From assembly GCA_020137815.1 (NCBI GenBank), contig CM035353.1, positions 7,750,001 through 7,814,000 of the forward strand: a DNA stretch of 64,000 bases, written 5' to 3'. Every line of letters begins with the position of its first letter. The first letter of the stretch is position 1. Positions 1-64,000 of this stretch are shown here, in pieces. This DNA comes from Hormiphora californensis (taxonomy: Eukaryota; Animalia; Ctenophora). The notes under the pieces were generated by a model. It worked only from the letters and a program-made list of their open reading frames with translations. It did no database searches and was not told where the DNA came from. A program made the position numbers and the translations under genes.

Positions 1-187
1 AACTCACGTACGCAGCATATAATATTGAAGGCAGCCATTAGGTCATGCAGCAACACAGCAAACCACCTCACACACTACAACACACTTGGTTCTCTTTTAT
101 TCACACTTCCTAACCAGAACAGTACCCCTCTCAGTGAGATACAAGCACACTCCCTAACTAGAACAGTACCCCTCTCAGAGATATATA

Positions 188-3100
188 ATGGTACGTGGTA
201 TGATCACTAGAACACCCCTGAAAGTATGTTCCAGGGGATTCAGATCTTCAAAAGGATTAAGGGTAAGCACTAAGCACTTTATCAAGTCTCTTATCTTACA
301 GTGGTCAATGGTCATCCGACATCCGACAATTGCCATATCTCGACGTGAACTTCGACGTGGAATTCGACGAGGAATAGCAGGCGACAGGCGTTCATAACTA
401 AAACGCCTGCTATTTCTTGTCGAATTCCACGTCGAAGTTCACGTCGAGATGTGGCAATTATGTCGGATGACCACTGTTAGCTGACTTTGTGTGTTGGTAT
501 CAACACTCTTGGTAGGCTTCATGCAATATCCCATTCCTATCCCCACTCCCCACATTCCTATCCCTCACTCCCCACATTCCTATCTCTCACTCCCCACATT
601 CCCATCCCCTATATTCCTACAGGAAGTAGTGATAGTGGCTGCAGCCCGTACTCCATTTACCAGCTTCGCAGGACCTCTCAAGAGCAAAACAGCCCCTGAA
701 TTAGGTAACAGCAGATGATCACACCAGAAAAGGGGGGGGGGGGGGGCGTCACCTTTTTTTGCCCATTGCCCATAATCCCAGCGAATTTTGGTTTTGCCCA
801 TATGGGCAAAATGGGCAAAAATGGGCAAAAGTGGGCAAAAGTGGGCAAAATGAAATTTTCAGTGTTATATGTCCTTTTTTCAACTCTATACCTTGATGCC
901 ATCTCTTAAAAACTCGGTCAGAATGGTCTTTGGTGTCTAATTACATAGTAGTCAAATTGTTTTTAGTGGTCAAATCCTAAATTTAGGATTTTTTAGGTTT
1001 TTTAGGTTTTTTTGGCTTTAATGGGTTTTAGAAACTTCCTAGAACAAAATAAATACAAGCATCTTCCTCAGCGTGAAATTCTGCTTCGATTATAGTGGCT
1101 ATAAACCTATCTATGATGTAAGGTGCAGGAGTTATTTTTTTGCCCATTTTTGCCCATTTTGCCCAAAGTCCCACGATTTTTGAAAATTCACTTTTGCCCA
1201 TATGGGCAAATATGGGCAAATATGGGCAAAATAAAAGGTGACGCCCCCCCCCCCAGAAAACTATATTTGCAACAGATCATAGTCTGACCTAACGATGCTA
1301 TTATTTCCCAGGCACGGTGGCTATATCAGCTGCAGTAGAGAGGGCTGGTTTGACACCCTCTCAGATCGAAGAGGTGTACATGGGTAACGTACTATCAGCA
1401 GGGATAGGACAGGCACCGGCCCGACAAGCCGCACTAGGTACGTTCTAGTTGTACGTGGGGGCTACCTTAGCATGATATATCTCCAGTCTTCATATTACAG
1501 GGCTGTATTTACAGGTGCGGGTTGTCTAGACACCACACCCTGTACTACTATTAACAACTCCCTCCTAGGTGCGGGTTGTCTAGACACAACACCCTGTACT
1601 ACTATTAACAACTCCCTCCTAGGTGCGGGTTGTCTAGACACCACACCCTGTACTACTATTAACAAGGTGTGTGCTAGTGGAATGAAAGCTATTATGTTGG
1701 CTGCTCAGGGGATAGCTTGTGGAGCACGAGATGTCATGGTGGCTGGAGGGATGGAGAGTATGTCAAAGGTGCCCATGACCGTGGATAGAGAGTCTCCCAT
1801 ATATGGAAACCGACTTGTAAAGGTAATATTATCATGTAGGATTTTATTATGGCTATAAGTTGTACCTGAAAACTTATAACACGAGACCGAAGGTCGAGTG
1901 TTATAAGTACAACAATAATGATCCGAGACCACAGGTCGAGGCAGATTCTTGTACTTTAGTGCACGAGCCTGCGAGTGCCACTAAGTGTAACTACCTCACG
2001 AGCCTGCGAGTGATGTAGTTTTACTTTTTGACCGAGCCTGCGAGGTCTAAAAGTGTAAGAATCTGGGACATTATTGTTGACGTCAGGTACAACGAAAATA
2101 GGCATAATAAAATTGCATTGTAAAATTTTTAAAACAAGAGTGAGGGACACTTTAGGGCGTAACAATAGAGCGAATTCATGATATGGTAGCAAGCAGAGAT
2201 ATCAGTATAAGATAAGATAACGCCTGATATGGGTAAAGAGAGTGAGAAATTAGTGAGAGTGAGAGAGATAAAGAATGTGTGGGACGTGGGTCCGGGAGTT
2301 CGTAACTGTTATCTTGATCTCGGTGCTGCAACGGCTTGACAGTGTGACATAAAGAAAGAGAGAGAGGGAGGGAGTTCGTAAATGCTTATCTTTCTAACGG
2401 TTTTTAAGTGTGACAGAAACAGTGGAGTAAGGAGTTCTAAGTGCAGCAGTGTTATAAGTTTTCATGTATCACTGGGGGGTGTTATAAGTGAAAACTTATA
2501 ACACTGGGGGGTGTTATAAGTGAAAACTTATAACACTGGGGGGTGTTATAAGTTGTACAAGCAGTGCTACCTAAAGAATTATATTATATCTCAAAATTTT
2601 ACAATGATTATTTATAGCCAACAAAATAAAACACAACAATACTCAATTTATTTTAGTGTTAAAAGTTTCAAACTACAGTGACTTCGTTTTTCAAGTCTTT
2701 CATCCTCGCTTTAGATCAAATCCTTTAGACTTTCTGTTAGACGATTAGTCTTAATCAGCAGATCTGACAGTGTATTGTAACAGTGTATTGTAACATTGTA
2801 TTGTAACAGTGTATTGTAACAGTGTATTGACAGTGTATTGTAACAGTGTATTGTAACAGTGTATTGTAACAGTGTATTGTAACAGTGTATTGTAACAGTG
2901 TACTGTAACAGTGTATTGTAACAGTGTATTGTAACAGTGTATTGTAACAGTGTATTGTAACAGTGTATTGTAACAGTGTATTGTAACAGTGTATTGTAAC
3001 AGTGTATTGTAACAGTGTATTGTAACAGTGTATTGTAACACACAGGATGGTATACTTAACGATGGTTTAACGGATGCCTACACTCCTGGAATGCACATGG

Positions 3101-60925: not shown

Positions 60926-63900
60926 ATGGTTCAGTTATCGTTGGAGAGGGACATCCGACGGGCTATTGAGCTCATGGAGAAACTGGAACAATGTAAGTCT
61001 TAGCTAGTAGTAGTTTCTAACCAAGTCAACTCACGGTAAGAGAGGGTTGAGTAATCTCAAGTCTTAGAGAACACATACATATCCATGTCAAGACCTAGGT
61101 CCTAGACCTGTCTGTAGAGTTTTGTAAATTAGAAAATGTATATATCAGTTGCCTAGCTAGACCCTGTTTTGCAATATATCAGAGCATTCCTTTCCCACCA
61201 TTATAGTATTCTGTAATGAATCATTACTAATGATGGCTTTACGTAATCCCACTATTCAATATAGACAGTTAGATGTTAGTTAGATTAGCACACAGTTCTA
61301 TATTATAGAACTGTGTGCTAATCTAACTAACATCTAACTGTGTGCTAATCTAACTGTGTGCTAATCTAACTCCTCATTTCAGCTGGTCAGATTCCCGCTG
61401 CCAAGTTAGAACCAATGAAGAATGTACTGAAGAGTGACTTCTGCAGAGCCGTCAGAGAGGTAATGTGACGTCACTCATCACTCAGAATCAGATCACTTGA
61501 AAAGGTCCAGTGCGTTACACACACACATGGTAGTAGAGAATGAGATGGAGAGAGAGATAGAATGGAGAGAGAGATAGAATGGAGATCAATGTTGTGTAGA
61601 AAGTGAGAGCTGATCCAAAGATAGACATCGTATTATAGAGACATTTAGGAAGACAGAGAAACAAACTTTCCAACATATTCTTCTATAGTTCATTTCCTTG
61701 TTCGCTGGCAGTGAATACACACCCGATAATGGTCAATACATGACGTCATATGCCCATATATGGACCTCCCTCCCTCTGCAGGTGTACGAACAGGTTCACG
61801 AGACAGTTGACACGAAGCACCCTCCTGAGATTAGAGCTGAGGCAGCAGCTAAAGCTACAGTTGCTGCATTTGCTGCTAGTGAGGGTCATGCCCATCCCAG
61901 GGTTATCGAGCTACCTAAGGTAAGTGTGGAACACTATATTGTCACTGGAACACTGTGTTTGTAATGTATTGTGTGTGGGCGTGGTATCCAGATACTGCCT
62001 ATGTTTACGATAATTGTTCCTCTTTTCCATCCCTTTATCTCTTTATTTCCATATTCTCTCTTTAACTGTCTCTCTCTCTCTCTCTCTCTCTCTCTCTCTC
62101 TCTCTCTCTCTCTCTCTCTCTCTCTCTCTCTCTCTCTCTCTCCAAGAACGTTGGAAGGAACTCCTAAACCACTATCTGATCCACTCTCGGTAAACGACTT
62201 GTACACACTTGTTTACACTCTAGTACTATTTATAGTCGCACTAGATGTGCAAACTGTTCCGAGAGAGTGAACGAATGTGCTGTGTGTGTGAACGAACTGT
62301 GTATCCACTGTATCCTGAATAGTAGTTAACTGCACACACCCACACAGTACAGTGTGTGTGTTAGAGATATGATGCAATGTACACATGACATGTACACACA
62401 GTAGTTATTGTTGTACATCATTTAATCACTTCCGCCTTCCCACACTACACTAATTTAATACACAGTCAATACCTATAATGGACTATTATAAAAATGGATG
62501 GTCAGAAGTGAAATGAATGTGTTATTATGTATACTGTGTAGTGTGTACACTATACAAATTATACAAAATGTACATTGTATCAGTCCATTGCGGGTGTGAT
62601 GTTAGCTATGTATTACACAGTGTGTATGTGAGATAAATAGTGGGCACACTGCCAACAATGTGATAACTGTGTGTGCCAGCCTTAACATTCTAGAATTCTT
62701 CATTTATCACGTACCACCTTTAAACTACCTCTCTAGAATGCATATATATCCAACTCCCTCCTCACATGACTAAGTATTTAACTAATTAGCCTCTACTCGA
62801 TTTAAAAGGACTTTTAAATCTCTCTACATTTCTCAAATCTCTCACTTTCTCCTCTCATTCAGACAGCGGAAGGGCTAGGGTTCAATGTGATGGGAGGAAA
62901 GGAGCAAGCATCGCCAATCTACATTTCCAGAATAATCCCTGGTGGAGCGGCCGCTAAGTAAGTCATTTGGGGGACCCCTCCTTTACACTGTTATCATGTG
63001 TTGTAACACTGTTATCTTTACAGGGATGGTAGTCTGAGAAGGGGTGACCAGCTGTTATCATGTGTTGTAACACTGTTATCTTTACAGGGATGGTAGTCTG
63101 AGAAGGGGTGACCAGCTGTTATCATTTGTTGTAACACTGTTATCTTTACAGGGATGGTAGTCTGAGAAGGGGTGACCAGCTGTTATCATGTGTTGTAACA
63201 GTTAACACTGTTATCTTTACAGGGATGGTAGTCTGAGAAGGGGTGACCAGCTGTTATCATTTGTTGTAACACTGTTATCTTTACAGGGATGGTAGTCTGA
63301 GAAGGGGTGACCAGCTGTTATCATTTGTTGTAACACTGTTATCTTTACAGGGATGGTAGTCTGAGAAGGGGTGACCAGCTGTTATCATGTGTTGTAACAG
63401 TTAACACTGTTATCTTTACAGGGATGGTAGTCTGAGAAGGGGTGACCAGCTGTTATCATTTGTTGTAACACTGTTATCTTTACAGGGATGGTAGTCTGAG
63501 AAGGGGTGACCAGCTGTTATCATGTGTTGTAACACTGTTATCTTTACAGGGATGGTAGTCTGAGAAGGGGTGACCAGCTGTTATCATGTGTTGTAACACT
63601 GTTATCTTTACAGGGATGGTAGTCTGAGAAGGGGTGACCAGCTGTTATCATGTGTTGTAACACTGTTATCTTTACAGGGATGGTAGTCTGAGAAGGGGTG
63701 ACCAGCTGTTATCATGTGTTGTAACACTGTTATCTTTACAGGGATGGTAGTCTGAGAAGGGGTGACCAGCTGTTATCATGTGTTGTAACACTGTTATCTT
63801 TACAGGGATGGTAGTCTGAGAAGGGGTGACCAGCTGTTATCATGTGTTGTAACACTGTTATCTTTACAGGGATGGTAGTCTGAGAAGGGGTGACCAGCTG

Positions 63901-64000
63901 TTATCATGTGTTGTAACACTGTTATCTTTACAGGGATGGTAGTCTGAGAAGGGGTGACCATCTGTTATCACATGTGTTGTAACACTGTTATCTTTACAGG
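60926..64000 (+). CDS. LIN7: Lin-7 homolog (L27 + PDZ), 3'-truncated by the window end
   Basis: [106 protein letters not shown]. Confidence 0.97.
62988..64000 (+). repeat. 64-bp (two 71-bp variants) minisatellite, >=16 copies of the LIN7 acceptor and exon start
   Basis: Unit TGTGTTGTAACACTGTTATCTTTACAG|GGATGGTAGTCTGAGAAGGGGTGACCAGCTGTTATCA; AGs end at 63023, 63087, 63151, 63222 ... 63999. Confidence 0.95.

Follow-up and report, generated by a model that had tools for sequence, protein, structure and literature searches.

Minisatellites that run across exon-intron boundaries have been described in amphioxus under the name of "mirages". Their units of 10-160 bp lie at either exon-intron boundary and are unstable in length, splicing is undisturbed, the mechanism is unclear, and the repeats have been proposed as a route to intron gain (PMC3087553). 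The genes concerned are Adh3 and the globin genes BflGb6 and BflGb9, to which PGBD5 and troponin C were added later (PMC3902484). In humans, the first unit of a 37-bp variable number tandem repeat (VNTR) in intron 7 of F7 spans the boundary, and only the most upstream donor is used (PMC1557585). Internal tandem repeats at exon-intron boundaries of human segmental duplications, with ~30-bp units in about 4 copies, lengthen introns (PMC2812944), and intron gain by tandem genomic duplication of AG/GT-bearing sequence has been reported as well (PMC3265369, PMC4974935, PMC3443670). The arrays described here lie in a stretch of 64,000 nucleotides of the ctenophore Hormiphora californensis (assembly GCA_020137815.1, contig CM035353.1, positions 7,750,001 to 7,814,000 of the forward strand), to which we refer in its full length as the window. 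They are mirages in a new phylum, accompanied by a first small-scale positional null.

Eight gene models of the window were built by hand, namely ACAT1, a dystrophin/dystrobrevin-like gene, a CECR2-like gene, an intron-bearing TMBIM gene, a BTB gene, a kelch gene on the minus strand, PRELI, and a LIN7-like gene. Together they comprise 74 coding introns with a median length of 211 bp, all 74 of the GT-AG type. Seven of the eight models are free of internal stops; the dystrophin-like model keeps one uncertainty of reading-frame phase near residue 492, and all premature-stop calls in this gene concern positions before that residue. Pfam matches were obtained for 12 of the 17 pieces scanned (EF-hand_2/3, bromodomain, Bax1-I, a weak BTB, kelch, PRELI, and PDZ); the names CECR2, LIN7, and dystrophin-like otherwise reflect similarities that we presume. 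The ACAT1 protein aligns with that of Bolinopsis over 401 aa and with P0012 over 298 aa (97.7%), in both cases with no gaps, and the best non-gapped animal matches of an ACAT1 exon are those of Bolinopsis microptera and Mnemiopsis leidyi (83%). A dystrophin-like exon used as a query in a homolog search gave no match. Among the 80 loci of the P0012 metagenome scan there was one useful spliced relative, L001 (77% aa identity), and no intron-bearing ctenophore contig was recognised among them.

A junction-spanning tandem copy was regarded as strong if it scored at least 20 and lay within 300 bp of the splice site; as a measure of noise, one unrelated site scored 10 and two kelch-repeat donors scored 14. 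Strong copies are present at nine of the 148 coding splice sites, and the LIN7 array, which is cut by the window end, is the tenth. These four donor and six acceptor arrays, with periods of 32-65 bp, amount to ten per 75 introns, i.e., to about 13% of introns in the window, and none of them falls on the 38 sites of the CECR2-like gene. Three features of the amphioxus mirages are found here: units extend across the exon-intron boundary, both 5' and 3' boundaries are concerned with units inside the range of 10-160 bp, and AG/GT is kept in many copies, the exceptions being ACAT1 1515, one copy in kelch intron 1, and the AG-less copies of the CECR2-like gene. An earlier note on this DNA had listed 16 repeats as duplications centred on splice junctions. 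Each of the 16 was found where the note had placed it, and ten are the strong arrays; of the others, one is an acceptor copy upstream of the ATG, three merely abut an acceptor, and two are weak.

In all the arrays examined, the copies run on into intron sequence and never into the next exon, from which it follows that their template was unspliced; no copy with a spliced exon-exon junction was found, and templating by spliced mRNA or cDNA was rejected on these grounds. The exon-proximal copy gives the intact reading frame, as the earlier note had claimed and as the ungapped alignment with Bolinopsis confirms for ACAT1, although this is nearly true by construction. Unit ends, as judged by eye, have 9 nt common to intron and exon in the LIN7-like array and ~0-3 nt in the other arrays, apart from the dystrophin-like donor array. 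In the long array of kelch intron 4, an in-frame TAG in the first intronic unit alone is seen. The joins of its copies read GTAAGT, and its distal end consists of a decayed unit followed by GTATGT (54421-54460 and 55893-55927, minus strand), so that the kelch donor now used may stem from the duplication itself.

The extra copies add ~3.2 kb (straddling arrays, three quarters of it from two arrays) and 0.6 kb (abutting arrays) to the 39.4 kb of intron. The arrays that overlie a junction or come as close as 15 bp to one account for ~3.9 kb, roughly one tenth of the intron DNA of the window, compared with 9.2 kb taken up by mobile or nested DNA and 3.1 kb by microsatellites. A general gain of introns by duplication was rejected: the direct repeats at intron boundaries have a mean length of 2.55 vs. 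2.49 in shuffled sequence (P=0.15), and boundary repeats of at least 6 nt occur in five of the 74 introns vs. 2.6 expected. In dystrophin-like intron 2 (9655-9908), the same 10 letters are found across the donor and the acceptor.

The distribution of duplications was analysed with a finder independent of Tandem Repeats Finder (TRF), which gave 52 non-microsatellite duplication loci in the window, 37 of them intronic (37 per 39.4 kb of intron), five exonic, and ten other. Chance similarity due to pyrimidine-rich composition was rejected, as a simpler finder gave 46 loci in the real sequence and 0 or 1 per shuffle when the sequence was shuffled ten times in 30-bp blocks. In the positional null, arrays were collapsed to one unit and the units were placed randomly over the coding introns, with untranslated region (UTR) introns and nested genes left out, in four versions (with and without mobile DNA, with and without the 8.4-kb intron). 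The mobile-element mask was drawn by hand from self-BLAST and reading, and results are given masked and unmasked; the test covers a single 64-kb window, the same from which the hypothesis came. Junctions are straddled by 10 of the 37 loci, vs. 4.9-6.1 expected (1.6-2x, P 0.016-0.052 across the four versions). With introns this short, five to six straddling events are expected by geometry alone. Given this modest excess and its borderline significance, short introns would by themselves account for at least half of the straddling arrays, and centring on junctions is at best a twofold effect. The claim that most repeats sit at boundaries holds for the intronic loci, 19 of 37 being at a junction or at most 15 bp away from it (7.3 expected) and 24 of 37 within 50 bp (unmasked counts), but applies to only about half of all 52 loci; the remaining 13 intronic loci are found beyond 50 bp.

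The most likely explanation, to which we assign a probability of about 0.6, is that the mirages are frequent short duplications which persist because they leave one junction intact and place the additional copies within the intron. A two-copy duplicate would be produced by slippage during replication or by microhomology-mediated repair, and unequal exchange or more slippage would allow some arrays to grow to 15-45 copies. Duplicates that break the frame inside exons would be purged; the periods of all five exonic loci are divisible by 3, which fits purging of the rest. Intron interiors would be turned over by deletions and mobile elements, and close to essential splice signals, where few deletions are viable, duplicates would last longer. 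The larger excess at acceptors would follow from this proposed "deletion shadow", as acceptors have the longer essential region. The exon-proximal site would be the one picked by the spliceosome, as happens in the donor array of human F7, and most mis-spliced products would be cleared by nonsense-mediated decay. The arrays are likely a tolerated by-product rather than a new splicing device, for which they provide no evidence. Tolerance and intron growth, both suggested in the earlier note, are plausible. Also in favour of this explanation are the letters shared at the unit ends of two arrays, the differences in length among contigs (see below), the premature stops predicted for most decoys, and the like anatomy and tolerance of the arrays in amphioxus and human F7.

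Several results weigh against this explanation. The real signal in the window is that short duplications crowd against exon edges, mostly at intron 3' ends. Loci that overlap a junction or lie up to 15 bp from it number 17-19 vs. 7.3-9.1 expected (P<=0.001), and this excess survives the removal of any one of six genes (P<=0.01). The non-straddling loci alone include nine of 27 within 15 bp of a junction vs. 1.9 expected (masked, eight of 20 vs. 2.3; 3.5-4.7x), of which seven of nine are on the acceptor side and are mostly copies of the branch point or the pyrimidine tract. Geometry does not explain this near-junction excess; the proposed deletion shadow would, and it is solely through that step that the tolerated-duplication explanation covers the near-acceptor excess. 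A local bias of mutation, or selection in favour of spare branch points, fits this excess too. Clean splicing at the real site is likewise assumed, as decoys often outscore the presumed real acceptors. Sites were scored with matrices derived from 69 donors and 66 acceptors that do not belong to arrays (mean scores 7.7 and 10.4). On this scale, the decoy donors displayed for the four strong donor arrays reach 8.1-11.6 and decoy acceptors 7.2-14.6, except for the distal ACAT1 decoy at 1515 (1.3). The presumed real acceptor is outscored by decoys in four arrays, the weak ACAT1 intron 9 copy included. In dystrophin-like intron 6, a branch-point motif precedes three of the four decoys and not the presumed real site; a missing motif says little, however, as YTRAY is found before only 42 of the 74 acceptors.

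Tentatively, and with a good deal less confidence than in tolerated duplication, the intron 3' ends of ctenophores may be a true hot zone of duplication, arising from a bias coupled to splicing or transcription or from selection for spare branch points. The first of these routes, in which R-loops, pausing, or structures of C-rich/G-rich tracts raise the duplication rate at splice sites or close to them, chiefly at the 3' ends of introns, appears rather unlikely. It agrees with the near-junction excess and its robustness to the removal of single genes, and with a density of ~3.3 events/kb within 50 bp of a junction vs. 0.4-0.7 farther in, a per-kb figure that is inflated by the straddlers; these are under extra purifying selection, and the raw excess could therefore be larger. 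On the other hand, the straddling excess is small and borderline, the CECR2-like gene has no strong copy, and the hypothesis was drawn from the window in which it was tested. The lack of spliced junctions in copies, which excludes a spliced-mRNA template, leaves R-loops unaffected. These results do not establish the junction-targeting process suggested in the earlier note, and duplications are also present inside exons and in intron interiors; junction-targeted mutation is possible.

The second route, in which redundant branch points, pyrimidine tracts, and splice sites are maintained by selection for robust splicing, we consider improbable. The predominance of acceptors among the abutting loci is what it predicts, several units contain CTAAC/TAAC-like motifs (47168, 48143, 53377, and 61332), and the GTAAGT joins and GTATGT distal end of the kelch donor array may be regarded in the same light. 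Copy numbers are, however, erratic (2 to 45), the sample labelled as a related species is devoid of part of the sequence at three intron 3' ends (see below), AG-bearing decoys should cost accuracy, and the CECR2 copies have no AG.

A function of the arrays in generating alternative isoforms, or in tuning unproductive splicing, is very unlikely. Decoy scores are mostly in the range of real sites, and three ACAT1 decoys read through in frame, with +18 and +36 aa for intron 3 and +14 aa for intron 9. A premature stop is nevertheless predicted for 20 of the 23 decoys tested, a set with three of the ~45 decoys in the long array of kelch and none of LIN7, so that the new isoforms proposed in the earlier note are not to be expected from most of them. 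One copy of the segment is present in the four full-length closest ACAT1 relatives among the matches listed, and likewise in the spliced contig L001. The insertion of 18 or 36 aa would adjoin what we take to be the thiolase catalytic cysteine motif.

Contigs of four out of 17 public sequencing runs (X1, X2, X5, and X7), all four of which behave as DNA, were compared with the window over 11400-14345 and bear on two of the ten strong arrays, those of dystrophin-like introns 6 and 12. X1 and X2 represent one sample, possibly the assembly's own, and X7 represents another, with a related species label. The X1 contigs cover both intron 12 acceptors (13900-14136 with no differences, 14107-14345 with two), and X2 agrees; an X7 contig over 12196-12296 includes two decoys of the x5 array. 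X7 joints skip 93 bp in the intron 6 array, 117 bp in intron 7, and 181 bp in intron 12, all of them at intron 3' ends of the dystrophin-like gene, and another X7 joint, at depth 2, skips 86 bp of intron 12. The 93- and 181-bp joints have short sides (26 and 31 letters), with the letters between not read and the direction of change not polarised. Intron 12, which has 242 bp and two acceptors in the window, would be left with ~61 bp and one acceptor by the 181-bp skip. Over 378 bp in which X1 is free of gaps, an X2 contig measures 402 nt, the difference of +24 being not exactly placed; X5 gives no cover over 13974-14171, and such a hole proves nothing. In both X1 and X2, the contigs over the x5 array have a raised summed depth, which does not amount to copy number. 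The arrays are real, and their origin as an artefact of assembly or polishing is scarcely credible: the frame break in the VPS41 gene of the window suggests that residual assembly errors may exist, and the copy numbers of the long arrays come from the assembly alone, but array copies differ by substitutions and indels (88-97% matches by TRF) and the X1 and X7 contigs reproduce acceptors and decoys.

Table 1. Arrays that copy a splice junction (first ten rows) and repeats that adjoin a junction or copy it weakly or on the UTR side, in window coordinates
Feature	Position	Strand	Remark
ACAT1 intron 3 acceptor mirage, 54 bp x2.8 (acceptor x3)	1513..1665	+	
ACAT1 intron 7 acceptor mirage x2, 53 bp	7657..7747	+	
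ACAT1 intron 8 donor mirage x4, 32-36 bp	7873..7991	+	
Dystrophin/dystrobrevin-like intron 2 donor mirage x2, 62-65 bp	9625..9758	+	~7 nt common to unit ends
Dystrophin-like intron 6 acceptor mirage x5, 40-48 bp	12122..12327	+	
Dystrophin-like intron 12 acceptor mirage x2, 38 bp	14093..14167	+	closes pyrimidine-tract repeats spanning 13979..14167
BTB intron 4 donor mirage x3, 51-56 bp	47346..47472	+	partial fourth unit extends to 47520
Kelch intron 9 acceptor mirage x3, 35-37 bp	52275..52374	-	
Kelch intron 4 donor mirage, 33 bp, 45.5 units by TRF	54452..55968	-	
LIN7-like intron 4 acceptor mirage, 64 bp, 15.6 units by TRF	62988..64000	+	real exon runs on past window end
44-bp duplicate of acceptor just 5' of ACAT1 start codon	102..185	+	putative UTR or trans-splice acceptor
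22-bp x3.5 pyrimidine-tract repeat, ends 14 bp short of ACAT1 exon 2 acceptor	532..608	+	junction not copied
13-bp x21 minisatellite, ends 5 bp short of ACAT1 exon 5 acceptor	2765..3040	+	exon edge not copied
Weak degenerate copy of ACAT1 intron 9 acceptor, score 10 (8833/8875)	8805..8879	+	
35-36-bp repeat adjoining acceptor of CECR2-like intron 6	30391..30523	+	copies without G of AG
Branch-point/pyrimidine-tract repeats 5' of putative UTR acceptor, intron-bearing TMBIM	44082..44168	+	exon edge not copied
17-bp duplicate of CTAAC branch-point-like stretch, 4 bp before BTB exon 4 acceptor	47168..47201	+	
14-bp x40 low-complexity array with CTAAC, before BTB exon 6 acceptor	48143..48724	+	
10-bp x4.3 branch-point-like repeat, 8 bp before kelch exon 7 acceptor	53377..53419	-	
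Weak donor-like series in kelch intron 1, score 12	57387..57554	-	only 9-12-nt core in common
16-bp repeat with CTAAC, 11 bp before LIN7 exon 2 acceptor	61309..61371	+	

The two weak cases, the 8833/8875 copy of ACAT1 and the series in the first kelch intron, are not clearly above noise, given the scores of the unrelated site and of the kelch-repeat donors. A possible degenerate second acceptor copy, below the score threshold, is present at kelch 51709 and 51735 (minus strand), 26 bp upstream of exon 11, and dystrophin-like intron 7 (12398-12612) contains a degenerate repeat of its own branch-point region.

The window has several other features. The VPS41 gene (41328-43972, plus strand) is intronless, and its frame is broken near 42830 with both halves matching Pfam TPR_Vps41, which indicates an assembly error or a null allele. 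An intronless gene of a rhodopsin-family G protein-coupled receptor (7tm_1, E 1e-14) is nested antisense in ACAT1 intron 7 (5916-6929, minus strand). The two TMBIM paralogues (37447-38355 and 44176-45647), 6 kb apart, of which one is intronless and the other has three coding introns, are 87% identical over 149 bp at their 3' ends, and the pair may reflect a retrocopy or gene conversion. The 8.4-kb intron 6 of the CECR2-like gene (22076-30524) probably holds one or more nested genes: it contains coding-looking stretches, e.g., an open reading frame at 25809-26297 (minus strand) with no Pfam match, and a 43-bp x3.4 repeat with CCAAT at 26911-27055. A short dispersed intronic element (11657-11689, 11991-12062, 22126-22157, 24799-24839, 28021-28082, and 46699-46775) looks like a small non-autonomous mobile element, and its summed contig depth of 6,000-155,000 in the four runs, with many loose ends, points to a very high genomic copy number. 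Palindromes or inverted-repeat elements, long and nearly perfect, are located at 14351-15946, 22783-23729, 3718-4486, 58764-59057, and 61265-61341, with an arm identity of 96-97% in the two largest.

The mirages of the window extend a little-studied repeat type, with numbers, from lancelets and scattered human loci to ctenophores. The acceptor arrays, whose decoys often score above the presumed real site, offer a natural test, in an early-branching animal, of how a 3' splice site is chosen, and the arrays are also liable to mislead gene prediction and read mapping. If intron 3' ends were indeed a hot zone, mirages would be the conspicuous part of a process that drives intron growth throughout animals, and this highly polymorphic genome would allow the process to be measured. 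For one ctenophore, tandem repeats were put at 13%, and trans-splicing, nested genes, and an elevated heterozygosity of intronic indels were described, with repeats at junctions unmentioned in the available part of that paper (PMC8527503). Our literature search, conducted mostly outside subscription papers and without supplements, gave no ctenophore report of such arrays and no genome-wide enrichment test. The structure itself, which the earlier note held to be undescribed at this density, is known from amphioxus (PMC3087553, PMC3902484) and from human F7 (PMC1557585), but we found no quantified density in print.

Comparison with the described systems places these arrays closest to the amphioxus repeats. 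In the studies of intron gain by tandem duplication (PMC3265369, PMC4974935, PMC3443670), a new intron arises from an exon; here, existing introns are lengthened and direct repeats at boundaries are not in excess. The boundary repeats of human segmental duplications (PMC2812944) belong to primate paralogues and often give alternative transcripts, whereas the genes of the window are single-copy and their decoys mostly lead to a premature stop. The F7 VNTR has the same anatomy, a boundary unit followed by identical, normally silent pseudo-donors (PMC1557585), and it is the anatomy alone that matches: F7 is one donor locus with experiments, and here four donor and six acceptor arrays have been read from sequence, for the latter of which the scanning rule of F7 does not account. 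With amphioxus mirages (PMC3087553, PMC3902484), the arrays share the occurrence at both boundaries, the range of unit sizes, the presence of AG/GT in most copies, and probably the variation of copy number. Splicing fidelity and somatic instability were reported for the amphioxus repeats, and ours are known from DNA alone. What sets the arrays of the window apart from the amphioxus mirages is their presence in a ctenophore, their frequency of ten strong arrays per 75 introns, their size of up to 45 copies, and a measured positional null.

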